DNA of 64,000 nt, from the NCBI GenBank assembly GCA_950054195.1, contig CATLPG010000010.1, positions 622 through 64,621 on the forward strand, given 5' to 3'. Origin of the DNA: an uncultured Saccharospirillaceae bacterium (GTDB taxonomy: Bacteria > Bacteroidota > Bacteroidia > Flavobacteriales_D > CAJJDF01). Both the position numbers and the translations under genes were made by a program. The notes below the pieces were generated by a model that was not told the DNA's origin, did not search any database, and saw only the letters and a list, made by a program, of their open reading frames with translations. Shown here in pieces: positions 40,890 through 62,582 of this stretch; the first letter of the stretch is position 1, and the number at the start of each line of letters is the position of its first letter.

Positions 40890-40928
40890 AATTTTGTTTA
40901 AATTTAACATATGTATAGTTAAACAAAA
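40890..40928. promoter_or_regulatory. candidate operator site 2 (ATTTTGTTTAA-N17-TTAAACAAAAT) upstream of the photolyase operon
   Basis: Perfect 11-bp inverted arms with a 17-nt spacer, 103 nt upstream of the ATG at 41032. Confidence 0.5.
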
Positions 40929-41031
40929 TAGCGTTTATTAGTTTAACCTAGCATTTAATCTAAAAACAATAGGCTAAGCTTTCAATTTTAAAATTAAAAT
41001 CTGCTGGATATAGTCCAAAAAAAGAGTCAAT

Positions 41032-44758: not shown

Positions 44759-45014
44759 ACCTAGAGAAATAGACCGTATCATAGAAATGGCATGGGAAGA
44801 TCGCACCACTTTCGATGCGATAGAATATCAATTTGGCATTGATGAATCTGGGGTTATTGAACTCATGCGAAAACACCTCAAACCAAAAAGTTTCAAACGC
44901 TGGCGGAAAAGAGTTACTAACCGAAAAACTAAACATCGAGCTAAACGAGATTTTACAGTTGGTAGATTTAAATGTAGTAGACAAAAAACTATTTCTAACA
45001 ACAAGTACAGCTAA
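44748..45014 (+). CDS. TIGR03643/DUF2805-like small protein (photolyase-associated family)
   Basis: 88 aa. 'EIDRIIEMAWEDRTTFDAIEYQFGIDESGVIELMRKHLKPKSFKRWRKRV' matches my recollection of this family, which is typically encoded beside photolyase genes. Confidence 0.55.
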   Translation: MMFKPREIDRIIEMAWEDRTTFDAIEYQFGIDESGVIELMRKHLKPKSFKRWRKRVTNRKTKHRAKRDFTVGRFKCSRQKTISNNKYS

Positions 45015-45037: not shown

Positions 45038-45045
45038 TATCTTTG
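45038..45045 (+). promoter_or_regulatory. candidate -7 box (TAnnTTTG) upstream of the giant adhesin gene
   Basis: TATCTTTG lies 20 nt upstream of the ATG at 45066. No clear -33 element. Confidence 0.35.
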
Positions 45046-45065: not shown

Positions 45066-48000
45066 ATGAACAAACTCATCTATACCCTTGCGGTATTTTT
45101 TATTTGTATTACCTCCTATGGAGCTGATTACTATTGGGTAAATGGCTCGGGCACTTGGACAGATGCTGCTGGTCACTGGGCAACCACGTCTGGCGGAACT
45201 ACAATGCATTTAGCTCCTCCAACAATTAGTGATGATGTTTATCTTGACTCCAACTCATTTTTAACTACAGGACAAACAGTTACCATTAATACAAAAGCTT
45301 ATTGTAAAAACTTTTTTGCTGCTAATGCTATAAATAACGCTACACTAACAAGTGGTGTCGATTCCTTAATTATTTATGGAAGTTTTATACTTAACAACAA
45401 CATTAACCTTAGCATTTCTCAACCACTTCTTTTTAAATCTAGTGGAGGTTCAGATACGATACATACACTTGGCAAAACAATTAATAGCGACATAATCATC
45501 GAAGGTGCATCCATATTTGTACTTACCTCTAACCTTAATTTATCGGGTAATTTAGTATTTAAACAAGGAACAATTGAAGTCAATAACTTTGATTTAACCT
45601 GCCATAATTTTAATGGAAATTTCATTATCCCTAAAACACTAACTCTCACAACAGGAAACATCAACTTAACAGGTGATGGTAATGCTTGGAATATAACCAA
45701 TACTAGTTTCACCCTAAATCAAGGTACTTCAACCTTAAATTTTAATTATACTGGTGCAAACTCAGTTATTTTTTCTCCTGCAGGCTTCACTTATAATAAT
45801 ATAGTTTTTAATTCTTCAAATAATGTTTTTTCATCTGGAGGAACATACAATAGCCTAACCTTTTCAGCGGGTAGTAAAACAACATTTCCTGCATTAGAAA
45901 TTCAAGTAATTGGTAGCATTAATGCCAACGGTACTTGTGGGGAACATATCATTTTTAATAGCAGCTCAACTACTCCCGCTATTTGGATTGGAACGGGGAC
46001 ACATGTCTTAAACTACCTCAGTATAAGCAATATTCAAGCGAGTGGAACTGCTTTTAATGCAAACAATTCTTTTGATGATGGCAATAACACGGGCATTACC
46101 TTTACCGATATTGCAGATAACAGTGATTTTTATTGGATTGGAGGAAATGGCGATTGGCACGATCCTGCTCATTGGTCTAACAGCTCTGGAGGAGCTTCGA
46201 ATGGATGTATACCTGGCCCTAATAACAACGTTTTTTTTGATGGAAACTCTGGATTTACAGTAGGCGGAGTTACTCTCAATAGAAATGCGTACTGTAATTC
46301 CATGGATTGGACAGGAGTATCTGGAACACCTCAACTAACTATTGGAAACGCCAAAACATTAAAACTAAAAGGCAGCTTTTTGTTAGCGGCTAATGTTTCT
46401 CCTAACATAGATGGAACTGTAGAGTTTTACTCTGGAAATTATGCTTCTGTTAATACTTTTAACAAGCAACTAAATGGAACATTAATCTTCAAAAAGACAA
46501 ATACTGCTAGCATCATATCAGATATCTTAACAGCCAGTATTCGTCACGAATCGGATAGTTTAGTATTTAATGGTAATAACATTACAATTAACAGCTATGT
46601 TTCAAACACTTCAACAAACAGGGTATTAAGTATAGCTAACAGTAACATAAAGCTTTTAGGTTCTGATACCGTTTGGCAAATATCACCAAGTAACTTCACT
46701 TATATTGACAGTTTTTCTACTATTTCTATTGAATCAGACACGAACTTAGTTGCTAGCTTTTATGGCGGAAATCAAACCTATGAATCGCTTATCATAAATC
46801 ATATTAATGCAGAAATACTAGATACAAATACATTCAACTACCTAGAAATTAAAAAAGGAAAAACGTTAGCAATAGAATCTGACGTTACACAAACAGTCGA
46901 CTCCCTAGTAGCTGTTGGTTCATGTGATTCTATTATAACTCTCCAATCCACATCTAACTTATTTACTCCTGCAAGAATCCAAAAACTAGGATATGACACA
47001 CTCTTTGTAGATTATTGTAACATAATAAACATTGATGCAGTAATTACTGGAAACGAAGCTTACTACACAAGAAACACCAACTTACAAAATAGTACCGTCA
47101 ATTGGTATGATTCTATCCCAACAACTTCAAACACGTATTATTGGGTTGGCAATGGAGGAGATTGGAGCGATGTAAATCATTGGTCACTGCTACCAGGAGG
47201 GCCTTCTGCTGGCTGTTTACCTACTGCAAAAGATACAATTATATTTGACTTATTATCCATTACTACTACTGGACAAGTAGTGATTTTAGATGTTGATGCT
47301 TCTTGTGCAAAAATAGATTTTACATTACTTGCAAATCCTTTAATCATTGATTTTAGAAGGGATTTAAACGTCTCCTTTGAAGCCAACCTTCATCCAAATT
47401 TAACCTGTACACGAAACAACAGTTTTTCGGCTATTTACTTCGTAACTGATTCCACGAATGGAATTTTCAACCCTGCAGATGCTTCACTAGATTTAGGGTT
47501 TATTTTTATTGGAGCTACCTTAACCGATACGCTTACACTCACAAGTAATCTTGATCTTGGAAATTTTGGAGTTTTTATTATCTCTAAAGGAACATTTATA
47601 AGTGAAGCCGCTGAATTAATTGCTAATTCCTTTAATTTATTTACAGACAATCCTAAAAACATTTTCTTAAATAGCACTTTTCTTTCTTTGTACTCTGGGG
47701 TAGATGCCCGTTTCTTAACCAACACTACATTTGATGCTGGAACTTCTAACATTTTTATAGAGGGGTCTTTAGGAAATGATTATTTTTATGGAAACGGTTT
47801 TAATTACCACAACTTGGAAATCAACCATGTTGCCTCAACAACCTTTTTAAGCGGAAGTAATACGTTCAATAAACTTAATATTTCAGCTGGTATTGAGCTT
47901 CAAGTGGAAAATGGAAGTGCACAAACCATCAATGATTCGTTACTTTTAGAAGGAACATGTTACGACAGTATTTCTATTTTCTCTGATAATGCTGGAGTTC

Positions 48001-51000
48001 AAACAACCTTTAACCTAGCGAGTGGCGATTACATTGCTACATGCATAAACTATCAGGATGTGGCTGTTACTTCTACTGTTCTAAACACCTTATTTAGTTC
48101 TGATTTTGGAAACAATAGTGGTATAACGTTCAACCCTGCTCCTTCATCTACTCCAAGCTTCACATTAGCATCCTTTCAAGTTTGTTTAGGTGATACTATA
48201 AAACCCGTGAACACCTCAACTGCTTTTAATGGAATATTTAACGACCTCTCTTTTTCATGGGATTTTAGCGATGGAACCATTAGCAACGATACTAACCCAT
48301 CTCATTTATATTTGAATGAAGGGAAATACTACATTGAGTTATCATCAACATTTACAAACGGCTGTACAAATACCCATACAGATTCAGTAAATGTAAACGA
48401 CCCTTCCCTACGATTATTTGCTTCGGATGGTGACACAACTATTTGTGAAAGCGAAGAAGTAATCTTTACAACTAGTGTAAGTGGAGATACTTATCAGTTT
48501 TTTATTAATGGCAATGCTGCAACAGCAATGATCCCCTCTACTTCTTATTCAACAGATTCTTTGAATAACGGAGATAGTATTTATGCTACCACGCTATTAA
48601 ATGGTTGTCCGGCTACTAGTTTAGATACCTTAGTTTGGATAGTTAATCCAAACCCAGTACTTACAGTTTCTTCTTCTATTCCGAATGATACCTTGTGTGA
48701 TGGCGATACCGTTTCAATAACTGCAACAGGAGCTACAAACTATCAATATTTTTTGAATAATATTCCCTTGGGGTTACCATCTAGTGATTCACTTTTTAAA
48801 TCGGGCGATATTAATTCAAATGACTCTTTATTTTTAATAGGCTCTTTTAGTTCTGGTTGTTCTGTGAATAGTGATACTATTGCTTTTCATGTTAACCCTA
48901 AACCCTTTATTACCCTTACGAATACTGGAGCCAATGTTATTTGTGATGGAGACTCTTTACTTTTCATAGCCAGTGGTGGAGAAGCTTATCAATACTCGGT
49001 AAATGGTATTCCAACAGCCGGCTTTATAACTTCTGACTCGCTATTACTTACTAATCTTTCTCACACAGATACCGTTAACGTAATTGGAGATTCTTTAGGA
49101 TGTTTAGCAAATGGAAATATTGAATACATTATTGCAGTTAACCCAATTCCTAACACATCAATCACACCTTCTATTCCTTCAAGTACAATATGTAGTGGTA
49201 ATAATTTAACTTACACCTTTTCTGGAGCTACCACTTATGAAGTTTTTATCAATGATGTTTCTCAAGGTCCTGCTTCTGGGACAACAACGTATAGCTCTTC
49301 AAGTTTTGCTAATGGTGATCGAATAAAAGTACTCGGTAGTACCTTTGGATGTGATAGCTTATCATTGGAGGACACAATTACCGTACTTCCACTCCCTACA
49401 CCAAGTTTAACATGTAGTGATGCTGATACAATCATTTGCTTAAATGATTCAGTTACTCTTATAGCTAGTGGTGCTGATCAATACCAATTTTTTATTGACG
49501 GAATTCCTGCAACAACGATAGATTCATCAAACACATATACAACAGACTCTTTAACCAATAATGATGTTGTTACTGTAATAGGTTATGTAAATGGCTGTGG
49601 TCAATTAAGTACTGATCAATTTAACTTTTCAGTAAAGCCTTTACCTTTGGTGAATATATCAAGTAATAACGATACTATTTGTCAAGGAGAAAGTGTTTTA
49701 TTTACTGCCATTGGAGCAACTTCTTATGAGTTTTTAGTGAATGGTGTATCTCAAGCTACACCATCTGCATCTAATACTTATAATACTGATTCTTTACAAG
49801 GTCTTTCTGATACCATCACAACTATCGGTTACTTAAATAGTTGCTCAAGCCTCTCGAATAACAAAGCAATCGTTGTTGTTAACCCTAGTCCTAGTGTTTT
49901 GTTTACAATCAATCAAGACTCTATTTGTGATGGAGATACAATAATTGGAACTGGAGCTGGAGCTTTAGATTATCAGTTTTTACTTGATGGAACACCTCTT
50001 AATACCTTCAGTAATAACAACACATTTTCTTTCGCAAATCTAGTTGATGGACAAACCTTATCGATAAAAGGAAAAACAAATGGATGCACAAGCAATGGTG
50101 ATACTGCTTATAACATAGGAGTTAATCCTATTCCTTCAGTTAGTTTAACAACTTCAGATATAGATCAAATAATTTGTGAAGGGGATTCCGTTTCATTTAA
50201 TGCGTCTGGTGCAATAAATTATACTTTTTTCATCAATGACTCAATACTTGCTACAGCTAATACTACTGGAATCTATTCCACAGATTCTTTGGTAAACAAT
50301 CAAGAAGTTCATGTAATTGGAGAAAACAGTGGATGTTCTGCTAAAAGTTCTCAATCTTATACTTTTACAGTAAATACCGCTCCAACTGTAACGATCTCCA
50401 CTACCGATGCAGATACGACCATATGTGAAAGTGAGTCTATCACATTTATTGGAAGTGGAGCTAGTTTATATAAATTCTATGTAAACAATTCTCTCTTTAC
50501 AAGCACTATAAATCCCATTTTATCAATATCCACACTTAATGATGGAGATACATTATCACTAATTGGCAATAGTGCAGCTGGGTGTATAGATACTGCTAAT
50601 ACAATACTTGTAGTAAAAGTTGATTCATTACCAAATACACAACTTTTCGCATCAGCAACTAATTCGACTTGTTTTGGAGATACACTTACATTTAATGCTT
50701 CTGGCGCTACCAATTATGAATTTTTCATTAATGGGTTTTCACAAGGGGCATCCTCGTCTAATCCAACATATGTAACAGATTCATTATCTACAGGAGATAT
50801 TGTAACTGTAATTGGTGAACAAAACGGTTGTTACCAAACAGCAGATTCTTCTTACGCATACCAAGTTTATAATTATCCTAACGTTTTACTCTCTATGCTA
50901 AACGCTAACATACCATGTACGGGAGATACAATTAATTATAAAGCTACCGGAGGAATAACCTATGAATTTTTTATCGATAATATTTCTCAAGGAACTCCTT

Positions 51001-53342
51001 CTACAAACAACGTATTCTCAAGTGCCACATTAACTGCTGGTGAAGAAATCTATGCTATTGGTTACAACAATGGCTGTGGATCAAAAAGCGACTCTATCTA
51101 CACCGTTCAAATTAATAGCTACCCTTCATTATCAGTAACAACTGTACCTGCCGGACCAAGTATCTGTTATGAGGATACACTTGTAATAAATACTCAAGGA
51201 GCTAACTCCTATCAATACTTCATCAATCAAGTATCGCAAAACATAACTGATTCTATTTTTAAAATCAACCAGTTAAATACTGGAGATACAATTAAAGTCA
51301 TTGGTTATAATGGTGTTTGCCCCTCAGCACCAACAAAGCTTAGCTATTCTGTTACAAAATTAAATTTAGCTATTAATTCACCAGATAATTTTATGTCGTG
51401 TGATAATTCTCCCGTAACCCTAACAGCTAATGGAGCTTCTCAATATCAATTTTCCGTTAACGGTTCTGCTCAAGGAGGATTTAGCACAAATAATAGCTTA
51501 AGCAATACATTTAATTCGGGCGATTACATTTCCGTTATTGGTCAAGGCATGGGATGTAGTCAAACCTCAAGTCCTTATTACATAAGCAGCATAAACAGTC
51601 CATCAATTGATCCACCCGGACCAATAAAAATATGTAATGGACAAGATATCCTATTAACTACAGATAACCTATTTGGAAACAAATGGTTTAAAGATGGTGT
51701 TGAAATTCCTAATGCTTATGACTCTAATTATTTGGTAAGCGAAACAGGTAGTTATTCTATTCAAAAAATACAAGGAGGCAATGGAGAGGTATGGTCTGTT
51801 GGTAATGGTGTTAATGGAGAACTTGCTAATGGAACATATACTAACTCCGTACTACCTTTGATAGCTCACTCAATTAATCAAGGAGTCGCCATTGATGGAG
51901 GAGAAAAATATGTTCTCTTTTTAAAATCTGACGGTTCGGTTTGGGCATGGGGTGATAATACTTTTGGTCAATTAGGCGATGGCTCATTTACTCCTAGAAA
52001 TACAGCTGAGCAAATCGTTGGACTTAGTAATGTGAATAAAGTTTCTGCTGGAGATAATTTTAGTATCGCACTTAGTAATGGAACAATTTGGACTTGGGGA
52101 GATAATACTAAAGGACAACTAGGGTTAGGAAACAATGGAAATGTAAGTATTCCAGTGTCCAATAATAATATAACCAATGTAATGGACGTATCCGCTGGAG
52201 GGGAATTCACAATAGCTTTAGATAATAACGGGGATGTATGGACATGGGGAGATAACCAATTCGGACAATTAGGTGATGGGTTCTTTACTAATAGAAACTT
52301 TCCATCAACGATAGGCTTGAGTAATGTTGTTTCTGTTTCAGCAGGAAAAACACACGCACTAGCCCTTGATATAAATGGAAATGTTTGGGTTTGGGGAGAT
52401 AACTCCTTAGGTCAATTAGGAATTGATAACATAGGGTTTATTCAACAACCAATTAAATTAAACTCTCTAAGCAATATTGTTAGTATTTCTGCAGGTACTA
52501 CACATTCTTTAGTGCTAAACACAAACAATGAGATTTTTACGTTTGGAGATAATACTTTTGGGCAATTAGGAGATGGGACAAACACACAATCCAATATCCC
52601 TAAAAAAATAAATGGTAATTACACCTCTATTTTAGCTGGGTACTATGCTAGTTTTGCCATTGGTTCAGATGCAAGCCTGTGGAGTTGGGGTAAAAACCAA
52701 TACGGTCAATTAGGCAATGAAGGTACTTCTAACCAAAATATACCACAACTTATTTCAAACTTTAAAGGTGCTTCACTTGTAGCTTCAAGTATTGAATCTA
52801 CTTCTGTGCTTATGACGAATGCTTTTAGTTGTGGGTCAACTACAGTTGATATTATTATTGATTCAGTTCCTGATGTTTTTATAACACTTACTAATGACAC
52901 CGTATTATCGACTACAGCTGTGGGAACTAGCTATCAATGGTATTTGAACGGAAATCTTATTCCTAATGCAAATACAAATTCTTGGATTGCTACAACTCAT
53001 GGCACATACACTGTTAAAGTTACCTTTGCTAATGGTTGTGAAGAAGAATCTAATGCCCTCATAATTTTACCCGTAGGAATTGAGGAAGAGGTTAATAATC
53101 TCTCGTTTTCTATCTATCCAAACCCAACTTCAGAGTATATTGAGATTAAAGCAAATAATAAAAATGATAGAATAAGCAACCTAACTTATTACGTTTACGA
53201 TATTAATGGAAAAGAGCTTATTACAACTTCAAATAACTTAATTTCGCTACACACTATCGAAAACGGAAGTTATATTTTACAAGTAAAATGGAATAATTCA
53301 TTAATACATACACAGCGAATTATTAAACTGGCTAAATTTTAA
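45066..53342 (+). CDS. giant secreted multi-domain protein: 3 x ~335-aa modules, PKD, 13 Ig-like repeats, 7-blade RCC1 propeller, T9SS type A CTD
   Basis: 2758-aa uninterrupted ORF with a signal peptide. 'FSWDFSDGT...NPSHLY' is a PKD domain (~48155..48395). The C-terminal 'FSIYPNPTSEYIEIKAN...NGSYILQVKW...RIIKL' (53094..53339) is a T9SS type A CTD. Confidence 0.9.
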   Translation: MNKLIYTLAVFFICITSYGADYYWVNGSGTWTDAAGHWATTSGGTTMHLAPPTISDDVYLDSNSFLTTGQTVTINTKAYCKNFFAANAINNATLTSGVDSLIIYGSFILNNNINLSISQPLLFKSSGGSDTIHTLGKTINSDIIIEGASIFVLTSNLNLSGNLVFKQGTIEVNNFDLTCHNFNGNFIIPKTLTLTTGNINLTGDGNAWNITNTSFTLNQGTSTLNFNYTGANSVIFSPAGFTYNNIVFNSSNNVFSSGGTYNSLTFSAGSKTTFPALEIQVIGSINANGTCGEHIIFNSSSTTPAIWIGTGTHVLNYLSISNIQASGTAFNANNSFDDGNNTGITFTDIADNSDFYWIGGNGDWHDPAHWSNSSGGASNGCIPGPNNNVFFDGNSGFTVGGVTLNRNAYCNSMDWTGVSGTPQLTIGNAKTLKLKGSFLLAANVSPNIDGTVEFYSGNYASVNTFNKQLNGTLIFKKTNTASIISDILTASIRHESDSLVFNGNNITINSYVSNTSTNRVLSIANSNIKLLGSDTVWQISPSNFTYIDSFSTISIESDTNLVASFYGGNQTYESLIINHINAEILDTNTFNYLEIKKGKTLAIESDVTQTVDSLVAVGSCDSIITLQSTSNLFTPARIQKLGYDTLFVDYCNIINIDAVITGNEAYYTRNTNLQNSTVNWYDSIPTTSNTYYWVGNGGDWSDVNHWSLLPGGPSAGCLPTAKDTIIFDLLSITTTGQVVILDVDASCAKIDFTLLANPLIIDFRRDLNVSFEANLHPNLTCTRNNSFSAIYFVTDSTNGIFNPADASLDLGFIFIGATLTDTLTLTSNLDLGNFGVFIISKGTFISEAAELIANSFNLFTDNPKNIFLNSTFLSLYSGVDARFLTNTTFDAGTSNIFIEGSLGNDYFYGNGFNYHNLEINHVASTTFLSGSNTFNKLNISAGIELQVENGSAQTINDSLLLEGTCYDSISIFSDNAGVQTTFNLASGDYIATCINYQDVAVTSTVLNTLFSSDFGNNSGITFNPAPSSTPSFTLASFQVCLGDTIKPVNTSTAFNGIFNDLSFSWDFSDGTISNDTNPSHLYLNEGKYYIELSSTFTNGCTNTHTDSVNVNDPSLRLFASDGDTTICESEEVIFTTSVSGDTYQFFINGNAATAMIPSTSYSTDSLNNGDSIYATTLLNGCPATSLDTLVWIVNPNPVLTVSSSIPNDTLCDGDTVSITATGATNYQYFLNNIPLGLPSSDSLFKSGDINSNDSLFLIGSFSSGCSVNSDTIAFHVNPKPFITLTNTGANVICDGDSLLFIASGGEAYQYSVNGIPTAGFITSDSLLLTNLSHTDTVNVIGDSLGCLANGNIEYIIAVNPIPNTSITPSIPSSTICSGNNLTYTFSGATTYEVFINDVSQGPASGTTTYSSSSFANGDRIKVLGSTFGCDSLSLEDTITVLPLPTPSLTCSDADTIICLNDSVTLIASGADQYQFFIDGIPATTIDSSNTYTTDSLTNNDVVTVIGYVNGCGQLSTDQFNFSVKPLPLVNISSNNDTICQGESVLFTAIGATSYEFLVNGVSQATPSASNTYNTDSLQGLSDTITTIGYLNSCSSLSNNKAIVVVNPSPSVLFTINQDSICDGDTIIGTGAGALDYQFLLDGTPLNTFSNNNTFSFANLVDGQTLSIKGKTNGCTSNGDTAYNIGVNPIPSVSLTTSDIDQIICEGDSVSFNASGAINYTFFINDSILATANTTGIYSTDSLVNNQEVHVIGENSGCSAKSSQSYTFTVNTAPTVTISTTDADTTICESESITFIGSGASLYKFYVNNSLFTSTINPILSISTLNDGDTLSLIGNSAAGCIDTANTILVVKVDSLPNTQLFASATNSTCFGDTLTFNASGATNYEFFINGFSQGASSSNPTYVTDSLSTGDIVTVIGEQNGCYQTADSSYAYQVYNYPNVLLSMLNANIPCTGDTINYKATGGITYEFFIDNISQGTPSTNNVFSSATLTAGEEIYAIGYNNGCGSKSDSIYTVQINSYPSLSVTTVPAGPSICYEDTLVINTQGANSYQYFINQVSQNITDSIFKINQLNTGDTIKVIGYNGVCPSAPTKLSYSVTKLNLAINSPDNFMSCDNSPVTLTANGASQYQFSVNGSAQGGFSTNNSLSNTFNSGDYISVIGQGMGCSQTSSPYYISSINSPSIDPPGPIKICNGQDILLTTDNLFGNKWFKDGVEIPNAYDSNYLVSETGSYSIQKIQGGNGEVWSVGNGVNGELANGTYTNSVLPLIAHSINQGVAIDGGEKYVLFLKSDGSVWAWGDNTFGQLGDGSFTPRNTAEQIVGLSNVNKVSAGDNFSIALSNGTIWTWGDNTKGQLGLGNNGNVSIPVSNNNITNVMDVSAGGEFTIALDNNGDVWTWGDNQFGQLGDGFFTNRNFPSTIGLSNVVSVSAGKTHALALDINGNVWVWGDNSLGQLGIDNIGFIQQPIKLNSLSNIVSISAGTTHSLVLNTNNEIFTFGDNTFGQLGDGTNTQSNIPKKINGNYTSILAGYYASFAIGSDASLWSWGKNQYGQLGNEGTSNQNIPQLISNFKGASLVASSIESTSVLMTNAFSCGSTTVDIIIDSVPDVFITLTNDTVLSTTAVGTSYQWYLNGNLIPNANTNSWIATTHGTYTVKVTFANGCEEESNALIILPVGIEEEVNNLSFSIYPNPTSEYIEIKANNKNDRISNLTYYVYDINGKELITTSNNLISLHTIENGSYILQVKWNNSLIHTQRIIKLAKF
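45123..48132 (+). repeat. three tandem ~335-aa protein modules (coding repeat)
   Basis: Each module opens with a Trp-rich cap: 'YYWVNGSGTWTDAAGHWATTSGG' (aa 22), 'FYWIGGNGDWHDPAHWSNSSGG' (aa 355), 'YYWVGNGGDWSDVNHWSLLPGG' (aa 691). Each closes with 'G(T/S)C...I..(F/L).S ... D.GNN(T/S)GITF'-like ends. Confidence 0.7.
48400..51600 (+). repeat. 13 tandem ~77-aa Ig-like repeats (coding repeat)
   Basis: The recurring pattern is 'xICxGDSVxFxASGAxxYxFFxNGxxxxxxSxxxxYxTxSLxNGDxVxVIGxxxGCxxxS....xVNPxP', with two conserved Cys per unit. I counted 13 units by eye. Confidence 0.75.
51775..52810 (+). repeat. seven RCC1 (beta-propeller blade) repeats
   Basis: Seven copies of the 'W.WG.N..GQLG.G' signature: VWSVGNGVNGELANG, VWAWGDNTFGQLGDG, IWTWGDNTKGQLGLG, VWTWGDNQFGQLGDG, VWVWGDNSLGQLGID, IFTFGDNTFGQLGDG, LWSWGKNQYGQLGNE. 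Confidence 0.8.
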
Positions 53343-53344
53343 CT

Positions 53345-53833
53345 ATGAATTTTTATATAAAAACATCATTTCTCATTATTACTTTATTATATGGGGTATG
53401 TTATGCTCAGGAAAGGGTAACTTTTGAAAAACATAACGTATCTATTGAGCAACCAGAAAGTTTTGAGAAAGTTGATTTTTTTGAAGGATTATATAGTAAA
53501 TCCACTGGAGCTTCAATACAAATTGAAACAGTTGATGGTGTTACTTATCCATTCTTAGCTAAAGGCTTTACAGAAGATAATTTAATTCCACAAGGAGTTA
53601 CATTGAAGAAAAAAGAAGAGATTCAAATGCAATCTGGTGATAAAGGCCTACTCATATTTATGGAGTTTAATGTCACTCAAAATGGAGAGACTAGAGTTTT
53701 TAAACGAATTACACTGCTTACTGGTAACTTAAGCAAAACACTAATGATAAATACTAATTTTTCTCCCGAGGTTGAAACATTGGTATATCCTGCTATTTAT
53801 AAAGCTTTACTAAGCGCTAAACTTGAAGAATAA
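53345..53833 (+). CDS. hypothetical small secreted protein (adhesin-cluster accessory candidate)
   Basis: 162 aa with a signal peptide. Starts 2 nt after the giant gene's stop and is overlapped by 11 nt by the next gene. Confidence 0.5.
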   Translation: MNFYIKTSFLIITLLYGVCYAQERVTFEKHNVSIEQPESFEKVDFFEGLYSKSTGASIQIETVDGVTYPFLAKGFTEDNLIPQGVTLKKKEEIQMQSGDKGLLIFMEFNVTQNGETRVFKRITLLTGNLSKTLMINTNFSPEVETLVYPAIYKALLSAKLEE

Positions 53834-56800
53834 ACACTTTTACATATTACTTGTTTTTATTGCTTTTGGTAGCGTTTTATCGCTTAAAGCTCAAACCTAC
53901 ACGCAAACAGACTATGCCCCATTTTCAAATGATAGCATGAACATGTGGGGAAGTGGTGGTGCTCTTAACCTAAATCGGGATATTGAGTTGTTTCGTTTAA
54001 ACCCTGGTCCACAAACTACTTCCGTTGGAAATATTACTTCTGTTGCTGGATCACAGTTTGGAGCCCTATTAAATGCATCATTGTATATTGATATTGGATC
54101 TAATTTTAGAATTTCTGGTTTTGAAGGTGGGTCAGTTGATGTTGACTATCCAGTTGATGTTAGTATGACTATGCCTACTGATTCAAGCTTTGAAAGAGGA
54201 GAATGGATTACTATTGAATCTGATTACAGTCTCAGAAACGCTGGTTTTATTAATTCTAGTTTTCCTAGTGGTGGAAGTACAGAACTTGTTATGAGATTTG
54301 GTTTTGCAACAAATGTTAATTCAAAAGTTTGTGTGTTTGGTTGCACAGATATTCCTTTGCTTCCTCCAAATTCAACGACAGCTCTTTTAGGTCAGTGGCC
54401 ATCCATAGAAATTCCAATTTTTGGATTATACCACGATAAAGCTACTAATACTGTTTCTACAGTTTACCCTTGTTTGGATCCGCATCCAATTCCCAACATA
54501 TGTAACTCAAATGTAACACCAATCCCTTTGGATATTCCTGATTTAGGTTTAAGTGGCTATGTTGACTTACCTCAAACAAATACCAACTCTTCCGTTAATG
54601 GAAAATGCATTAGCGCTTATGGAAGAGATGAATACATCCGTTTGGATATTGATATTTTAAAATATTTAGCTAAAATAGCTGGAGCAATACCTGGAGGTCA
54701 ACCTTTAGCTGTATTAATGGATAATTTAAGTAACAGTTACAGCTTACCTGGAGGGGCTAGTGTGAGCTACAATATATTTTCTGCTGATTTCACAATTAAA
54801 AACTACAACAACCAACGATTTACCTATTGTCCCAATGTAAATACAACTCTTAATTTTCCAACAAGTGTAAAATACCGAATCAAAAATCCATCAGGAACAA
54901 TACTATCTACAGGCTTTGACCAAACGGTAACTTTCCATACTGGAAATGACATTGATATACAATATCCTTGTAGTTATGAATTTGTAGAAGTAACCCCTGA
55001 GTATAAAATTGATGAAACAGAAAACTCATTCAGAAATGAAACCTATGACAGTCTTGATTTTTCATTCAATATGGCTGCTCTTTCATTTAATATCACAATA
55101 CCAAAAATAACAGTTACCCCTGAGCTACATTTCCCCGAAGTTTGTATTCCCTATATATACCCTTGTGGAAATTGGAAAAAACCATGGAGAATGTGTACTG
55201 GTCAATCATGTACACCTGCATTTACCGTCCCTGCGGTATATTTTGGACCATACTCAATTGGTTTTGGCCCTTTATGGACGGCTAGCATCCCCGTTGGAAA
55301 CATTAAAATTCCTTGGTTTGATCGTTCTTGGCCCTTAAAAGATATGGGCGATTTTACTGGATCAACTATCCGATTAGTTCCTAGAAAATATGAAGTATTG
55401 CTTGCTCGTACAGATATTTTATGTAAAGGGGATTCTACAGGCAATTTTACTGCTACTATCAAAAATGGAACTCCTCCCTTTTTATATGAATGGAGTAACA
55501 ATAACTCCTATACCTCATCTTCCCGTACAGAAACAATTAGTGGTTTAGCGGCAGGTATTCATCATGTTAAAATAACAGATGCTAACGGGTGTTCTTTGTT
55601 TGGTAGCATTACATTAACAGAACCAGAGAAAAAACTACATGTAATTGACATCCAAAAAGAGAACGTTTCATGTTATGCATTTAGTGATGCAAAGGCATTT
55701 GTTAACATTCAGGGAGGAACAACCCCATACAATTATTTATGGTCTAACGGAAGTATAAACGATACATTATTAAATGTTAGTATTGGAAATTATACATTAC
55801 AAATTACTGATAGTAATAATTGTATACTGGATACATCTATAACAATAACTCAGCCAGATTCGATTACAATAACAAGTATAAAAACTGATGTTTTATGTTA
55901 TAGTGACTCCACAGGAACTGGTCAAATTCAAGTATCTGGCGGAACATTTCCTTATCAATACAATTGGAGTACAAGTGATAGCTCAAGTTTCTCTAATAAA
56001 TTACCTAATGGAACACATATGATTAATGTAACAGATCATCAAGGTTGTAGTAAAACACACAACATAACCATTAATCAACCAGTAGCTCCTCTATCAATTG
56101 CCAATGTAAGCATTCAAAATATCAACTGTTTTGGTGAGTCTACAGGAGAAATACAAGTAACTCCAACAGGAGGAACTTATCCATATACATACACTTGGTA
56201 TAACACAAATAATATTCAACTTGCTTCTAAAACTACAGTCATCAATAATCAACCTAAAGGATTATACACTGTTATTATTTCAGATACAAATGGGTGTGAA
56301 GTAGATTCAACCATTGAATTAATAGAGCCCATCGCTCCATTATCCATCGAATTAACTGCTGATTCTGTTACGTGCTTTGATGCTAGTAATGGTGCAATTG
56401 ATTTGAGTGTATCTGGTGGAACTGCTCCATACTCTTTTAATTGGAGCAATGGCAGTACAACTGAAGATTTAACTAATATTCCCTCTGGGAATTATAGTAT
56501 AACAGTAACTGATGCATTAGGTTGTACATTCATAGATTCAATTGATGTACTCCAGCCTACGGATTCCCTTAAAATTACTCTAACTAAACAACATCATGTT
56601 CTTTGTTTTGGTGATTCAACAGGAAACCTAGAAGTAATTGCTGAAGGAGGAACAACTCCTTATATATACAACTGGAATAATGGAGTTAATCAGCCCATAA
56701 ACCCCAAGATTAAAGCAGGCAATTATATTGTCACTGTCACTGATTTTTATGGATGTTCTTTATCAAACAACTACGTAATATCTCAACCTAACACCCCCTT

Positions 56801-58457
56801 AAACATCACATACAACAACAAAAACGTAAGCTGTTTTGATGGTAGTGATGGAGAAATTAATGTAATCACAAATGGAGGGACTGCTCCTTATAACTACCAG
56901 TGGGCAGATAGAGACTCAACTATACTTAGTTATACTTCAAGTTCAATTAATAATCTACCAGAAAACATCTATAACCTAAAAATAGTTGACTCAAATAATT
57001 GCTTGTTAGATACAAACATTAGAATTACCCAACCACAACAGGAATTATCAATTATTCTATCTCCTAATGATGCTTTATGTTTTAATAGTTCAGATGGGTT
57101 TATTAACTCAAGTGTTTATGGGGGAACCGCTCCATACTCATACGATTGGAGTAATTCGGCTACATCACCAAACATTACTAACTTAACCACTGGCAATTAT
57201 TACTTAATTGTAACAGATAGTTTAGGTTGTATACAAATTGATAGTGCCTTGATTAATCAGCCAGCCCTTCCCTTGCGGGTATCTACTCAAACTGAAGATG
57301 TAACTTGTATTGGTGGCACTAACGGTAAAATAATGTCTTTTGTTACTGGAGGGGTATCACCTTACACATATGCATGGAGCAATGGACAAAGTTCTCAGGA
57401 TATCGATAGCCTATCAGCTGGATCATATACTCTAACCGTTACGGATGCTAATGGTTGTACCTCGATTTCTGGTGGAACTATAAATGAGCCTAGTACTTCA
57501 GTAAATATTAGCTATACTGTTGATTCTGTATCGTGTTATAGAGGTAATGATGGGCATATTAGAGTAGATATTACTGGAGGTACAACACCCTATCAATTAC
57601 AATGGGCAGACTCCTTATTTTTACTAAACATAAAAGGAAATGATATTTACAACTTAACTACAGGAGAATATGAAATGATCGTTACTGATGCAAATGGATG
57701 CATGTCTTCTGCATTAATTTTTGTTCCTCAACCAGATTCTTTAACACTTGATTTAATAAAAACAGATGCCTTATGTTTTGGATCAGAGGATGGCTCAGTG
57801 ACAACATATGTTCAAGGAGGAACAACTCCTTATCAATACTTATGGACAGATTCTGCTACGACTCCTAATCGAGATAATATTGGTGCCAACACTTATCAAG
57901 TAACGGTAACTGATGCTAAAGGTTGTACCGTAACAGGAGCAATTAAAGTTGAGCAACCTCCTGTTATTTGGGCTACAACCGACTTTAAAGAAGTTTCCTG
58001 TAGAGAAGAAACGGATGGAAGCTTAACACTCATCCCTCAAGGTGGTGTTGGAGGATATATTATTAACTGGTCAAACGGAGAGAGTAAAGAAACTATTGAA
58101 AATTTACCAACTGGTAATTATACTGCTATTTACGAAGATGCTAATGGCTGTAAAGATACCGCTGTTTTCAATTTGTATGGAAATGACCAAGTGTGTATAC
58201 AACTTTCTAATACGATTACTCCAAACGATGATGGAATTAACGATACATGGATTATTGATGGTATAGAGCATTATCCTAACGTATCGGTGAAAGTATTTAA
58301 TGAATGGGGAAGAGAAGTGTTTACATCTAGCGGTTTATATACTGCTTGGGATGGAACTTTTAATGGCAAGCCTCTACCTGGTGGAACCTATTATTATATT
58401 ATTGACTTAAACACGGGTGACCCTGTATTTAAAGGTCCTATATTAATTGTAAGATAA
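53823..58457 (+). CDS. SprB-repeat protein with orphan ~520-aa N-terminal domain and T9SS type B (gliding-motility-associated) CTD
   Basis: 1544 aa. The TTG start yields the signal peptide MKNKHFYILLVFIAFGSVLSLKAQ. There are 12 SprB repeats. The C-terminal 'ITPNDDGINDTWIIDGIEHYPNVSVKVFNEWGREVF...WDGTFNGKPLPGGTYYYIIDL' (58185..58454) is a type B CTD. Confidence 0.85.
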   Translation: MKNKHFYILLVFIAFGSVLSLKAQTYTQTDYAPFSNDSMNMWGSGGALNLNRDIELFRLNPGPQTTSVGNITSVAGSQFGALLNASLYIDIGSNFRISGFEGGSVDVDYPVDVSMTMPTDSSFERGEWITIESDYSLRNAGFINSSFPSGGSTELVMRFGFATNVNSKVCVFGCTDIPLLPPNSTTALLGQWPSIEIPIFGLYHDKATNTVSTVYPCLDPHPIPNICNSNVTPIPLDIPDLGLSGYVDLPQTNTNSSVNGKCISAYGRDEYIRLDIDILKYLAKIAGAIPGGQPLAVLMDNLSNSYSLPGGASVSYNIFSADFTIKNYNNQRFTYCPNVNTTLNFPTSVKYRIKNPSGTILSTGFDQTVTFHTGNDIDIQYPCSYEFVEVTPEYKIDETENSFRNETYDSLDFSFNMAALSFNITIPKITVTPELHFPEVCIPYIYPCGNWKKPWRMCTGQSCTPAFTVPAVYFGPYSIGFGPLWTASIPVGNIKIPWFDRSWPLKDMGDFTGSTIRLVPRKYEVLLARTDILCKGDSTGNFTATIKNGTPPFLYEWSNNNSYTSSSRTETISGLAAGIHHVKITDANGCSLFGSITLTEPEKKLHVIDIQKENVSCYAFSDAKAFVNIQGGTTPYNYLWSNGSINDTLLNVSIGNYTLQITDSNNCILDTSITITQPDSITITSIKTDVLCYSDSTGTGQIQVSGGTFPYQYNWSTSDSSSFSNKLPNGTHMINVTDHQGCSKTHNITINQPVAPLSIANVSIQNINCFGESTGEIQVTPTGGTYPYTYTWYNTNNIQLASKTTVINNQPKGLYTVIISDTNGCEVDSTIELIEPIAPLSIELTADSVTCFDASNGAIDLSVSGGTAPYSFNWSNGSTTEDLTNIPSGNYSITVTDALGCTFIDSIDVLQPTDSLKITLTKQHHVLCFGDSTGNLEVIAEGGTTPYIYNWNNGVNQPINPKIKAGNYIVTVTDFYGCSLSNNYVISQPNTPLNITYNNKNVSCFDGSDGEINVITNGGTAPYNYQWADRDSTILSYTSSSINNLPENIYNLKIVDSNNCLLDTNIRITQPQQELSIILSPNDALCFNSSDGFINSSVYGGTAPYSYDWSNSATSPNITNLTTGNYYLIVTDSLGCIQIDSALINQPALPLRVSTQTEDVTCIGGTNGKIMSFVTGGVSPYTYAWSNGQSSQDIDSLSAGSYTLTVTDANGCTSISGGTINEPSTSVNISYTVDSVSCYRGNDGHIRVDITGGTTPYQLQWADSLFLLNIKGNDIYNLTTGEYEMIVTDANGCMSSALIFVPQPDSLTLDLIKTDALCFGSEDGSVTTYVQGGTTPYQYLWTDSATTPNRDNIGANTYQVTVTDAKGCTVTGAIKVEQPPVIWATTDFKEVSCREETDGSLTLIPQGGVGGYIINWSNGESKETIENLPTGNYTAIYEDANGCKDTAVFNLYGNDQVCIQLSNTITPNDDGINDTWIIDGIEHYPNVSVKVFNEWGREVFTSSGLYTAWDGTFNGKPLPGGTYYYIIDLNTGDPVFKGPILIVR
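55390..58180 (+). repeat. 12 tandem SprB repeats (~77 aa each, coding repeat)
   Basis: The unit is 'C(F/Y)GxxxGxIxxxxxGGTxPYxYxWSNG....xxxLxxLxxGxYxxxVTDxNGCxxxxxxxIxxP'. I counted 12 'GGT.PY.Y.W'-type cores. Confidence 0.75.
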
Positions 58458-61400
58458 TTGAATAAATTTTTACTCCATATTATATTTATTATTGCATCAT
58501 TTTCGATGTATAGTCAATGTCCTACATTAACTATAATAAACAAGCAGAACGTTACTTGTTTTGGTGGTGCAAATGGACAAATTACTGTCCAAGTTACTCC
58601 CGATGGTTCATTACCTCCCTGCGGATCTGGTTATAATATTATATGGTCAAACGGTGCTAATACTACTACTATAAGCGGACTTACTGCTGGCGTATACTAT
58701 GTTAATGTCACCAACAATTGCACAGGGTGTACCTCATTTGCAATAGCCTCCATTGAAGAACCCTATCAATTAACTTCTACTATCTCTAAAACTGATGCTA
58801 ACTGTAAAAATGAAGCTTCTGGAACTGTTGATTTAGAAGTAAGCGGAGGTACTCCTCCCTATAATTATAGCTGGAATACCGGGAGTATATCTCAAGACTT
58901 AATAAATGTAGCAGCAGGTAATTATAACGTAACCATTACTGATGATAATGGTTGTACAGCTACTAATACTTCAGTTGTTAATGAACCTGCTGCTACAGTA
59001 GCTAATACAGCTACGGTAAATGACGTGAGTTGTTTTTTAGGAAATGATGGCGCTATACAAATGGATGTTTTTGGAGGAACTCCTCCTTATACCTACAACT
59101 GGAATAGCGGCACGTATTTATCCGAAGATATTGCCAACCTTACCCAAGGGCCTTACGCTGTTGACATTACAGATGCTAAAGGTTGTATATTAACAAAAAA
59201 CTATACGGTACAACAGCCCACGGCTATTAACACAACACTTATTCCTTCAGCAGTACTTTGTAACGGAACGTCAACTGGATCAGTAAATTTATCGACTAAT
59301 GGAGGAACTCCTCCTTATGATTATAGTTGGTCGAGCTCTAACTTTACACTTGGAAACTCTCAAAACTTATCTAACATCCCTTCAGGAAATTACTACATAG
59401 AGGTTACTGATAATCTCGGGTGCATACATGTTGATTCAACAGTTGTTACCGAACCTAGTACGTTAATTATTACATCATCAGTTACTGCTGTTAGTTGTAA
59501 TGGTTTCTCTGATGGAAATATACAGCTAACAACCGTGGGAGGAACTCCTCCTTATACATATACATGGTCGGATGGAAATGGAGCTTTACCTAATACCACA
59601 GAAGATTTAATAAATATCCCTTCTGAAACCTATCAGGTACTTGTTGAAGATTTTAATGGATGCTCTTTCGCCCAATCATTTATAGTTACTCAGCCGCCAG
59701 CTCCAATTAGTGTTTCTTCAACAAAAGTTGATGTAGACTGTTTTAGTAATAATACTGGCTCTATAGATTTAACAGTTTCTGGAGGAACATTTCCTTATCA
59801 ATATTCTTGGGCTCATGGACCATCAACCCAAGATGTAGAAGATTTATTTTTCGGAAATTATACGGTTACTATTATAGATACCAACGGTTGTATCGAAACC
59901 GAAAACGTTTTTATTAATCAACCTAACAATCCTTTATCAGTAAACGCTAATATAGCTCCCGTATTATGTTACGATAGCACAAATGGAGCCATTGTATTAT
60001 CTCCCTCTGGAGGAACTTCTCCCTACAACTACCAATGGATAAATAGCACATTTACGTTAAGTGCTACTTCAAAAGACTTAACAGGAATGGGTGCTGATTG
60101 GTATGCAGTTACCATAACAGATTCTAACGCTTGTCAATTAAGAGACACGTTTACAATTAATGAACCAGACGAATTATTGCTTTTATTAAATCCATCTGAT
60201 GTGCTATGCTTTGGAGAAAACACAGGTTCAATAGATTTAAGTATAAGTGGTGGTTCTATTCCTTATAGTTTTTTATGGAGTAACACAGAGATTACTAAAG
60301 ATGTTCAAAACCTAACCGAAGGAAAATATCATGTTACTGTTACTGATAATAATGGCTGTATTATTAAAGATAGTGCTGTTATTAATCAACCTCTAACTCC
60401 GTTAAGTAGCTCTTATAATGTGAAAAATACTACATGCCATGGAGGAAGCGATGCACATATTATTTACACAGTAAGTGGAGGTACTCCAAGTTATAATTAT
60501 TCATGGTCTAACGGAGGTCAACAAAAAGATATTTTTAACATTTCTGCTGGGTCTTATCAAATTATCACAACGGATAATAACTCATGTATACTTACTGATA
60601 CTATTCTTGTTACCGAGCCTGATTTTATATCTATTTTAGCTAATATAACACCTGTAAGATGTAAAGGAGAAAGTTCAGGGGAAATTGACATATCAGTTAC
60701 TGGAGGAACTCCCGAGTACGACTATCATTGGACCAATAGTGATTTTGTTCTGAGTGCATCTACGCAGGATTTAAACGAATTACCAGCCGATTCATACTCA
60801 GTAGAGGTTACGGATACAAATGGTTGCACAGGTAGTAGTGCTTTTGTAGTTATTGAGCCTGATGAACTAGAATTAAATGCTGTTAAAACTGATGTTACTT
60901 GCTTTGGCGCTCAGGATGGTACGATAACGCTCAATCCAACAGGTGGAAATCCTTTTTATACCTTCGATTGGAATAATGGTAGTATCCAATCAAACTTAAC
61001 CAATCTAGAGCCAGGAGTATACGTTATTAATCTATTGGACACAAAAGGGTGTAATAAAAGTGAAACCTTCACAGTTATTGAACCAGATGAAATATCATTG
61101 AATCCTATTGTTACTGAAGTCTCCTGTAAAGATCAAAGCGATGGGAGTATCAAGCTTTACCCGGAAGGAGGTAATGGCGCTTATACTTACAACTGGGAAT
61201 TTGGCTCTTCGTCCTCATATGTTGATGGATTAGCTGGTGGTGAATATTATGCAGAAGTTACAGACTTACTTGGTTGTACTGGAGATTCTGTAATTGACAT
61301 GACAATTAATCCACGAGCTTGCATAGATTTATCTAATACCTTTTCACCGAATGGTGATGGAATTAATGATACTTGGATTATAGATAATTTAATTCTTTAT

Positions 61401-61580
61401 GAAGACGCCAAACTAAATATTTATAATGAATGGGGAAATATCGTTTTTCAAGGAGGAAATGATTCTGAATGGGATGGAACATATAATGGAAATACTCTTC
61501 CTAATGGAACCTACTATTATATTTTAAAAGTGCTAAATGATAATGAAACGTATAAAGGTGGAATTACCATTATTCGATAA
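58458..61580 (+). CDS. SprB-repeat protein with T9SS type B CTD
   Basis: 1040 aa. The TTG start sits on the nucleotide after the previous stop and yields the signal peptide MNKFLLHIIFIIASFSMYSQ. There are 12 SprB repeats. The C-terminal 'FSPNGDGINDTWIIDNLILYEDAKLNIYNEWGNIVF...WDGTYNGNTLPNGTYYYILKV' (61310..61577) is a type B CTD. Confidence 0.85.
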   Translation: MNKFLLHIIFIIASFSMYSQCPTLTIINKQNVTCFGGANGQITVQVTPDGSLPPCGSGYNIIWSNGANTTTISGLTAGVYYVNVTNNCTGCTSFAIASIEEPYQLTSTISKTDANCKNEASGTVDLEVSGGTPPYNYSWNTGSISQDLINVAAGNYNVTITDDNGCTATNTSVVNEPAATVANTATVNDVSCFLGNDGAIQMDVFGGTPPYTYNWNSGTYLSEDIANLTQGPYAVDITDAKGCILTKNYTVQQPTAINTTLIPSAVLCNGTSTGSVNLSTNGGTPPYDYSWSSSNFTLGNSQNLSNIPSGNYYIEVTDNLGCIHVDSTVVTEPSTLIITSSVTAVSCNGFSDGNIQLTTVGGTPPYTYTWSDGNGALPNTTEDLINIPSETYQVLVEDFNGCSFAQSFIVTQPPAPISVSSTKVDVDCFSNNTGSIDLTVSGGTFPYQYSWAHGPSTQDVEDLFFGNYTVTIIDTNGCIETENVFINQPNNPLSVNANIAPVLCYDSTNGAIVLSPSGGTSPYNYQWINSTFTLSATSKDLTGMGADWYAVTITDSNACQLRDTFTINEPDELLLLLNPSDVLCFGENTGSIDLSISGGSIPYSFLWSNTEITKDVQNLTEGKYHVTVTDNNGCIIKDSAVINQPLTPLSSSYNVKNTTCHGGSDAHIIYTVSGGTPSYNYSWSNGGQQKDIFNISAGSYQIITTDNNSCILTDTILVTEPDFISILANITPVRCKGESSGEIDISVTGGTPEYDYHWTNSDFVLSASTQDLNELPADSYSVEVTDTNGCTGSSAFVVIEPDELELNAVKTDVTCFGAQDGTITLNPTGGNPFYTFDWNNGSIQSNLTNLEPGVYVINLLDTKGCNKSETFTVIEPDEISLNPIVTEVSCKDQSDGSIKLYPEGGNGAYTYNWEFGSSSSYVDGLAGGEYYAEVTDLLGCTGDSVIDMTINPRACIDLSNTFSPNGDGINDTWIIDNLILYEDAKLNIYNEWGNIVFQGGNDSEWDGTYNGNTLPNGTYYYILKVLNDNETYKGGITIIR
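58518..61300 (+). repeat. 12 tandem SprB repeats (coding repeat)
   Basis: Same unit as in 55390..58180. I counted 12 cores. The first is atypical: 'TPDGSLPPCGSGYNIIW'. Confidence 0.75.
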
Positions 61581-61595
61581 ATTTTATGTGTTGAT

Positions 61596-62582
61596 ATGAA
61601 AAAACTACTACTCATTGTACTGTTTGCTATTATGTCGGTGTTAACATACACACAGCAACGAGCATTAATGACACAGTATATGTTTAACGATTTAATCTAT
61701 AATCCTGCGGTTGCTGGTGTAAAAGATTATGTTCCTATTAATTTAAATGTACGTGAGCAATGGACAACCATTAACGCTGCCCCTGCTACTCAAAGCGTTT
61801 CTATTCATGGTTACCTTGATTATAATTTAGGTGCTGGTGCACATATTTTTAACCATTCTGCGGGTCCCTTGAGAAGAACTGGGCTTACATTATCTACTGC
61901 TTATCATTTAAAATTAAAAGAGAACAGATTTAGTAAAGAATATCGAACACTTTCTTTTGGGTTAAGCGGAACACTTATGCAATATGTCCTAGATAAAGAA
62001 AAAGTTAAAACTAGAATACCTGACGACCCTGCGGTAATTAGTGCTTTTAATTATCGTATGGTTCCTGATTTTTCTTTTGGGTTATATTATCATGAAGGGA
62101 ATAAGTTTTATGTTGGTGTATCAACTTTAAATCTTCTCCAAACTCGCTTCGATTTATTTAATACCTACGAGTTTAACATCAATAAAACAGTTCGTAATTA
62201 TTATATCAGTGGAGGAGCAAACTTTAAAGTAAATTACGATTACTCTATTCAAGCATTTATGCTTGGTCAAATTATTGAAAGCACACCGTTTCAGGTTGAA
62301 ATAGCTGTACTTAACTTTATAAAATCTAAGTATTTTATTGGTCCAACTTATCGCTTACAAGATTCATTTGGTGGTATTATTGGCTACAAAAACCATTCAT
62401 TGAGGGTAAGTTATTCTTATGATTATACTACTTCTGATATTCGACCTTTTCAAAATGGAACACATGAAGTGAATTTTACACTGTTTTTCCTAAATGGTAG
62501 CTTGAATGGAAGCAAAACCTATAAAGGAGATAAACAACGAGCTGCAAATAGTAAGTATAAGCCAGATATTAATGAATTTTAA
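61596..62582 (+). CDS. PorP/SprF family type IX secretion system membrane protein
   Basis: 328 aa with a signal peptide, then 'QQRALMTQYMFNDLIYNPAVAG' (the family N-terminal signature) and a beta-barrel-like remainder. Lies 15 nt downstream of the type B CTD gene. Confidence 0.8.
   Translation: MKKLLLIVLFAIMSVLTYTQQRALMTQYMFNDLIYNPAVAGVKDYVPINLNVREQWTTINAAPATQSVSIHGYLDYNLGAGAHIFNHSAGPLRRTGLTLSTAYHLKLKENRFSKEYRTLSFGLSGTLMQYVLDKEKVKTRIPDDPAVISAFNYRMVPDFSFGLYYHEGNKFYVGVSTLNLLQTRFDLFNTYEFNINKTVRNYYISGGANFKVNYDYSIQAFMLGQIIESTPFQVEIAVLNFIKSKYFIGPTYRLQDSFGGIIGYKNHSLRVSYSYDYTTSDIRPFQNGTHEVNFTLFFLNGSLNGSKTYKGDKQRAANSKYKPDINEF

Follow-up and report, generated by a model that had tools for sequence, protein, structure and literature searches.

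Five genes at positions 45066-62582 of the 64,000-nucleotide (nt) stretch of contig CATLPG010000010.1 analyzed here, hereafter the window, form a real operon for fibre proteins of the cell surface whose export runs through the Bacteroidota type IX secretion system (T9SS). They encode a giant protein with an RCC1 propeller (g1), a small secreted protein (g2), two proteins with SprB-repeat stalks (g3 and g4) and a PorP/SprF-family protein (g5; Table 1). All five open reading frames (ORFs) run in one direction, with spacers of 2, −11, 0 and 15 nt between successive genes. An earlier interpretation of this DNA from its letters alone (the sequence-only reading) had described the same arrangement. 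Every coordinate and spacer was reproduced from the ORFs of the window, and hidden Markov model (HMM) scans with Pfam and NCBIfam returned the same domain calls for all five proteins.

Two of these spacers, −11 and 0 nt, presuppose that g3 and g4 start at TTG. Some gene callers pick later starts, giving 1504 amino acids (aa) for g3 and 1024 or 1029 aa for g4, and such automated calls shorten the signal peptides of both proteins. We accepted the TTG starts because both codons (53823 and 58458) are kept at the related locus L001 (79% DNA identity) together with the in-frame signal peptides behind them (...KA↓Q for g3 and ...S/G↓QC for g4, the arrow marking cleavage), whereas the alternative ATG of g4 is GTT there. 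No terminator-like hairpin was found at the junctions of the five genes. A candidate −7 promoter box precedes g1; no other TAnnTTTG box occurs in the 150 nt before each of the five starts, and this one is kept in L001. Hairpin-free junctions and a single −7 box fit one transcript, without proving one. A sigma-70 promoter scan was uninformative (87 sites against 83.5 expected), its consensus being inapplicable to Bacteroidota.

Table 1. Features of the operon, its surroundings and its counterparts at related loci. Positions are those of the window unless a locus (L) is given. CTD, C-terminal domain.
Feature	Position	Strand	Length	Description
g1	45066-53342	+	2758 aa	Signal peptide; three ~335-aa N-terminal repeats without family match (aa 20-1040); PKD and ~13 Ig_7-like domains (aa ~1047-2200); RCC1 β-propeller (aa ~2290-2600); type A CTD (aa 2683-2754)
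g2	53345-53833	+	162 aa	Signal peptide
g3	53823-58457	+	1544 aa	TTG start; signal peptide (aa 1-24); ~505-aa cysteine-rich all-β head (aa 25-530, nt 53895-55412); 12 SprB repeats; type B CTD (aa 1460-1542)
g4	58458-61580	+	1040 aa	TTG start; signal peptide; 12 SprB repeats from residue ~21; type B CTD (aa 957-1040)
g5	61596-62582	+	328 aa	PorP/SprF family
Candidate Bacteroidota −7 promoter box (TAnnTTTG)	45038..45045	+		TATCTTTG; 28 nt 5' of the g1 ATG; motif match only
Site of the L006 deletion	54509-54519 (L006 ~11165)		11 nt	AAATGTAACAC
g2-like	L009, L010, L018		174-183 aa	
g3-like	L009, L010, L018		1537-1588 aa	Head, 12 SprB repeats, type B CTD
g4-like	L009, L010, L018		1048 aa in each	11-12 SprB repeats, type B CTD
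PorP-like	L009 17671-18618; L010 17797-18750; L018 17787-18740		315-317 aa	Conserved C-terminal tail
DUF4140/DUF4139 gene	L019 13465-15072; L020 13473-15089; L022 13449-15056			Follows the g2 and head genes
Divergent β-barrel-like gene and C25-peptidase type A cargo	L020 4482-9897; L022 4935-9833		~334 aa (β-barrel-like)	Precede the g2 and head genes
Tandem cargo genes	L008 3-9023			Type B CTD fragment; 1721-aa type A β-helix/Ig giant; head cargo
Light-response cluster	38756-45014			SDR; MerR and B12-binding (CarH/LitR-like) regulator; two unrelated 162-aa ORFs; DPRP photolyase-related gene; photolyase/cryptochrome; 136-aa ORF; DUF2805 gene
Convergent gene	63370-64000	−		Gly/Ser/Thr-rich within the window
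Peptidase_S74 protein	2587-4338	−		C-terminal Peptidase_S74 domain
Peptidase_S74 protein	10770-13115	+		C-terminal Peptidase_S74 domain
Peptidase_S74 protein	13119-16274	+		C-terminal Peptidase_S74 domain
Stretch shared with L003, L004 and L005	43345-63834		20.5 kb	

Both stalk proteins end in the type B CTD of T9SS cargo, recognized by TIGR04131 (g3, 1e-18, 67.3 bits; g4, 7.6e-19, 67.7 bits; cut-off 35) and by PF13585 (2.4e-24 and 5.8e-22). Read from their TTG codons, both begin with what we judged by eye to be a Sec signal peptide (..KA↓Q in g3, ..YS↓Q in g4). The N-terminus of g4 aligns as an SprB-type repeat in all orthologs, so that the picture of a headed g3 and a headless g4 on equal 12-repeat stalks, already drawn by the sequence-only reading, held, and the repeat count is conserved across species. 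This headed and headless pair of equal-length stalks on one carrier is a new element.

The gene that follows g4 after 15 nt belongs to the PorP/SprF family (PF11751, 6e-65; TIGR03519, 1.8e-66, with 224.6 bits where the cut-off is 90.55 and a match from position 1 to 288 of the 292-position model), and a PorP gene stands directly 3' of the type B cargo gene in L001, L009, L010 and L018 as well. Type B cargo of Flavobacterium johnsoniae depends on a PorP/SprF-like carrier, usually the product of the gene immediately downstream, and remains bound to it at the surface (PMC12618676, PMC9143113). g5 is the obvious carrier for g3 and g4 alike, and its sharing by the two is plausible because the last 100 residues of g3 and g4, which hold their CTDs, are 48% identical. 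This value falls within the sharing range of F. johnsoniae, where the carrier Fjoh_1677 serves three cargos with CTDs more than 44% identical while most CTD pairs are 20-30% identical (PMC12618676). Two stalk proteins with a single SprF-like partner had been counted among the peculiarities of the locus; the partnership is plausible, but it is not new, given the three cargos of Fjoh_1677. There, the cargos are scattered over the genome, whereas here cargos and carrier belong to one operon.

We then compared the locus with its relatives, which are Fluviicola and Crocinitomicaceae metagenome-assembled genomes (MAGs). The g2-g3-g4-PorP block is kept in all five complete Crocinitomicaceae loci (the window, L001, L009, L010 and L018), each with stalks of 12 repeats, as conservation of gene order would have it. 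L009, L010 and L018 come from three other Fluviicola species whose proteins are 30-38% identical to those of the window, and their genes, from g2 to a sixth gene behind PorP that is taken up below, are separated by −11, 4-6, 4-6 and −1 nt. Since they persist at this level of divergence, gene order, the headed and headless pair and the 12-repeat stalk are under selection.

The most distinctive part of g3 is its head. The first ~530 aa of the protein match nothing in Pfam or NCBIfam. A search with the g3 head gave two distant matches, and a head alignment gave ten loci among GTDB species genomes; an exhaustive profile search extended the family to 457 clusters at 50% identity, 105 of them with E ≤ 1e-30. 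The head nearly always comes directly after the signal peptide, nearly all members end with the type B CTD signature (…TIIR or …TIVR), and the domain is conserved at ~30% identity across orders. This head family, widespread, unannotated and placed on top of many type B stalk proteins, is a new element of the locus.

An AlphaFold2 model of the head from a 43-sequence alignment was confident (predicted local distance difference test, pLDDT, 82.8; predicted template modelling score, pTM, 0.66), after an earlier model from three sequences had been poor (pLDDT 36). It is almost wholly β: several of its strands run to 19-25 residues, whereas its helices number only two and are short. The domain has conserved cysteines. 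Foldseek found no real match for this fold in PDB or BFVD (TM ≤ 0.1); its top rows, Vip3/Cry toxins and class II fusion proteins at TM ~0.08, are noise and not evidence. A profile search of PDB sequences found nothing for the head. The head would most likely be the ligand-binding end of g3.

At one locus the head is interrupted. L006 (ERZ24658405) carries an 11-nt deletion between two ATGTAAC direct repeats, which frameshifts the g3 head into ORFs of 195 and 1309 aa and leaves g2 in place. This is either a natural null allele created by slippage or an assembly error.

g2 accompanies the head. The protein has a type I signal peptide with predicted cleavage at ..CYA↓Q and no CTD, from which we predict a periplasmic location. 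It has no family match in Pfam, NCBIfam or PDB, where a profile search returned nothing relevant at E ≤ 10. A single-sequence search with g2 found one close relative only, and the family as a whole comprises 31 clusters, all unnamed and without Pfam domains; every member begins with a type I signal peptide, next to which stands Gln, and all lack a CTD. Similarity to DcrB/PsbP was rejected (PF08786 at E = 0.084 in only one of 13 family members, which is not significant). The g2 HMM had no further match elsewhere in the window, and the other two 162-aa ORFs of the window, both upstream, proved unrelated by inspection.

In 17 of 18 distinct loci, the gene immediately 5' of the head gene and on its strand belongs to the g2 family. 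The linkage is reciprocal, being seen in loci found via the head (L009-L018) and in loci found via g2 (L019-L022), and it spans two orders. The two genes overlap by 11-17 nt in Crocinitomicaceae, and in Bacteroidales-type loci they either overlap, by at most 4 nt, or stand up to 29 nt apart. Bacteroidales-type loci retain only the pair of g2 and head genes, with no adjacent g1, g4 or PorP, and their head-bearing protein has a short stalk of two SprB and two PKD domains. Judged by this linkage, the conserved core of the system is g2 plus the head domain, a pairing that the sequence-only reading had overlooked.

Other genes recur beside this pair. A DUF4140/DUF4139 gene follows it in three of the four loci sampled via g2, and in two of them a divergent β-barrel-like gene and a C25-peptidase type A cargo precede it; these neighbours may be further partners in Bacteroidales-type loci. 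The divergent genes of ~335-349 aa upstream of g2 in such loci are not PorP-like, as phmmer gave no match. The sole head-bearing locus without a g2-like gene is L008, where the head cargo stands in tandem with a type B CTD fragment and a type A giant.

From its location and linkage, with translational coupling to g3 in nearly all relatives, we infer that g2 is a dedicated periplasmic helper of the head, a chaperone or holdase acting before export, or alternatively an inhibitor of the head. More tentatively, and with clearly less confidence than we place in the operon itself, g2 and the head may be an unrecognized two-part system, in which a single class of type B cargo has its own periplasmic partner and which, with g3, g4 and g1, perhaps builds one composite surface structure on a single carrier in Crocinitomicaceae. 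If so, g2 would be the first cargo-specific periplasmic T9SS factor, as far as the literature cited here indicates.

The same coupling could be read in terms of conflict, with g3 as a stalk-mounted, contact-dependent effector whose head is lytic or membrane-active and g2 as the immunity protein or inhibitor in the producer's periplasm. The head gene hardly ever lacks a coupled gene for a small periplasmic protein, the head combines unusually long β-strands with the lack of a fold match, and Bacteroidota giants with unannotated N-terminal domains can be toxins, as in the TANFOR family (PMC7073777). The resemblance to TANFOR toxins extends to their large size and to neighbourhoods rich in SprB repeats and CTDs; however, the head measures ~500 aa against ~147 aa, the C-terminus of g3 is a type B CTD and not a toxin, and the small partner gene lies upstream. 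TANFOR itself was rejected, with no TIGR02542 match in an NCBIfam scan of g1-g5 at E ≤ 0.01, and Pfam, NCBIfam and the PDB profile search brought up no toxin or enzyme family. Moreover, the head is held at ~30% identity across orders and is not polymorphic, and immunity genes usually lie downstream of their effectors, whereas g2 lies upstream. The natural population behind L006, in which the head is frameshifted and g2 retained, speaks for neither side. We regard an effector as improbable.

At the other end of the operon, g1 is a T9SS cargo of a different type. Its type A CTD is recognized by TIGR04183 (6.5e-08, 32.4 bits against a cut-off of 23) and by PF18962 (30.6 against 27), and its ortholog in L009 matches at 1.1e-12. 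The protein also carries an RCC1/WD40_RLD propeller (PF25390, 1e-77, Pfam scan), periodic cysteine pairs and an N-terminal internal repeat evident from its tblastn self-offset. In each of the eight Crocinitomicaceae loci (the window, L001, L007, L009, L010, L011, L017 and L018), an adjacent g1-like giant has the N-terminal module, the Ig repeats, the RCC1 propeller and the type A CTD in common with g1; L009, L010, L011 and L018 carry orthologs of 2457-2794 aa, L007 and L017 truncated copies. In six of the eight, the g1-like gene lies on the opposite strand, divergent from g2 over a spacer of 129-200 nt, and the 2-nt coupling of g1 to g2 is for this reason lineage-specific. The five-gene order proposed from the window is accordingly found in part: the giant is always adjacent, but it is divergent in six loci. 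Its translational coupling, likewise, agrees with the 2-nt spacing in the window and is not conserved beyond the lineage of the window. Nevertheless, that g1 and the module have stayed linked through an inversion speaks for a functional tie between them, and the conserved neighbourhood makes the RCC1 giant and the small protein real partners, as had been suggested. One of the eight loci, L017 (CALPVI020000207.1), comes from a MAG labelled 'Actinomyces viscosus'; its set of g1-like, g2-like and head genes is typical of Crocinitomicaceae, and bin contamination or mislabelling is likely.

Conserved neighbourhood also bears on whether the genes belong together at all. They could be independent T9SS cargo genes with nothing in common but a promoter, and T9SS cargo genes do often cluster (PMC7073777, Table 1). 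The orientation of g1 differs among loci, and L008, an unrelated locus, also has type A and type B cargo genes in tandem, its giant being no g1 ortholog (rejected for only weak Ig-repeat similarity). The mix of the two cargo types, which the sequence-only reading held to be distinctive, loses that status with L008. Yet chance clustering hardly accounts for a gene set, order, repeat number and protein lengths kept at 30-38% identity, for a g1-like neighbour that outlives an inversion in eight of eight loci, or for a g2-head linkage across two orders, and we give an incidental cluster little credence.

We next weighed what kind of surface structure the operon would build. The sequence-only reading proposed an undescribed gliding apparatus, in which g3 and g4 would be SprB-like, mobile adhesins loaded by g5 onto the GldJKN track. 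Fluviicola is described as gliding, and the locus shares with sprCDBF its SprB repeats, its type B CTDs, its downstream PorP/SprF-family carrier and, in the lineage of the window, the lack of an adjacent PorE-like gene. By contrast, SprB is 6497 aa long, and g3 and g4, at ~1000-1500 aa, are 4-6 times shorter. No Pfam or NCBIfam match to the five proteins names SprC or SprD, in libraries whose holding of such models was left unchecked.

The carrier itself is more informative. In SprF, a Cys-X-Cys motif in the C-terminal tail bonds Cys343 of GldK and so links SprB to the gliding track; the motif is needed for gliding, not for carrier function, and SprF without its cysteines still makes short, sporadic contacts with the track, a report that concerns SprF and not other carriers (PMC12635249). 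g5 lacks the motif that marks SprF in the strict sense. Because g5 and its orthologs from L009, L010 and L018 have no cysteine at all, a disulfide of the SprF-GldK type is excluded for g5.

The sixth gene of L009, L010 and L018 points the same way. It overlaps PorP by 1 nt and encodes a protein of 536-541 aa with an OmpA domain (1e-14) and a TPR-like N-terminus, a PorE-like protein. Five F. johnsoniae operons combine a type B cargo, a PorP-like and a PorE-like protein, and their products are thought to be static and anchored to peptidoglycan, while mobile cargo has no PorE-like neighbour (PMC12618676, PMC9143113). No trace of a PorE-like gene was found in the window (best tblastn E-value 0.18 across 64 kb), and L001 has a GT22 gene at that place. 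By this comparison, the Fluviicola module in its ancestral form falls into the static class, and the window is a derived form of that class. The PorP orthologs of L009, L010 and L018 have in common a conserved C-terminal tail (…TPWLKRNRIY.PKI) to which that of g5 (…KGDKQRAANSKYKPDINEF) is unrelated; the change of tail coincides with the loss of the PorE-like gene, which suggests that the ortholog tail may be a site of contact with PorE. Cysteine-free carriers and PorE-like neighbours in orthologous modules count against the gliding apparatus, and the module is probably a static surface structure and not a track-driven machine. Gliding adhesins are an unlikely reading of g3 and g4, if a less improbable one than an effector or an incidental cluster.

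With moderate confidence, we therefore favor a static, T9SS-exported cell-surface adhesin operon of a Fluviicola-like (Crocinitomicaceae) bacterium, with g2 as its helper. All five products would enter the periplasm via Sec, their signal peptides being directly visible and four of them having Gln at +1. g2 would stay in the periplasm and act on the g3 head before export. g3 and g4 would cross the T9SS translocon and, in the manner of type B cargo, be taken up and held by the outer-membrane β-barrel g5, and g1, given its type A CTD, would take the PorV/PorU route to be attached to lipopolysaccharide or released. The surface would then present Ig-like 12-repeat stalks, with the disulfide-rich head of g3 at its distal N-terminal tip, next to the headless g4 and the RCC1 giant. 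The complex would be static, tied in its ancestral form to peptidoglycan by the PorE-like protein, and the lineage of the window would have lost the PorE-like gene and inverted g1, fusing all into one operon.

Several points weigh against this reading. The F. johnsoniae data suggest that carrier and type B cargo are stoichiometric, and one carrier gene for two cargo genes is not fully explained. With its PorE-like gene absent, the window fits mobile cargo by the F. johnsoniae rule of thumb. The need for Cys-X-Cys applies to SprF and its close homologs, and a weaker association of g5 with the track is possible. The label 'adhesin' derives from architecture, the head lacks a fold match and could have a non-adhesive activity, and the role of g2 is deduced purely from location and linkage.

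Among the known systems closest to the module is the Fjoh_3952/3951/3950 class (PMC12618676, PMC9143113), with which it shares a type B cargo gene followed by a PorP/SprF-family gene, a carrier without the SprF cysteine motif and, as regards its Fluviicola orthologs, a PorE-like OmpA gene next in line. It differs in that each carrier goes with a tandem pair of cargos, a headed and a headless one on equal stalks, and in having an extra upstream gene (g2) tied to a new head and a conserved type A RCC1 neighbour; the lineage of the window differs further by the loss of its PorE-like gene. Type B cargo together with a PorP-like carrier is a known backbone, whether PorE is there or not, and neither the sharing of a carrier nor the clustering of mixed cargo is new. 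New are the head family, its upstream periplasmic partner, the headed and headless stalk pair and the conserved RCC1 type A neighbour.

Type B cargo is far less understood than type A, and its current models draw on roughly a dozen proteins of F. johnsoniae and a single one of Porphyromonas gingivalis. The locus does not overturn these models but offers testable extensions. The coupling of g2 points to a cargo-specific step before translocation that current T9SS models lack, two cargos with 48% identical CTDs beside one carrier are a natural test of carrier specificity and stoichiometry, and the presence or absence of a PorE-like gene, with its correlated change of carrier tail, provides a natural contrast for the static-versus-mobile rule.

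The operon sits in a stretch that is 100% identical in L003 and L004, from two metagenomes, and differs by 1 nt in L005, which suggests a near-clonal, widely sampled population. The light-response cluster upstream is unrelated to the operon and stops 51 nt short of g1; the gap contains no terminator-like hairpin. Read-through, and hence co-regulation of the adhesin operon by light, is possible on this layout; the adjacency is kept in L001 and not in other Fluviicola loci. Downstream, g5 is followed by ~790 nt without a convincing gene and then by a convergent gene that has no Pfam match and whose predicted product in L003 and L004 measures 1336 or 1416 aa. We took g5 as the right-hand boundary of the module because the downstream neighbour in L001 is a different one, the GT22 gene. 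Elsewhere in the window, three large proteins end in a Peptidase_S74 domain, which serves endosialidase and tail-fibre proteins as their intramolecular chaperone; three such self-cleaving trimeric fibre proteins in one window of a bacterial chromosome are unusual.

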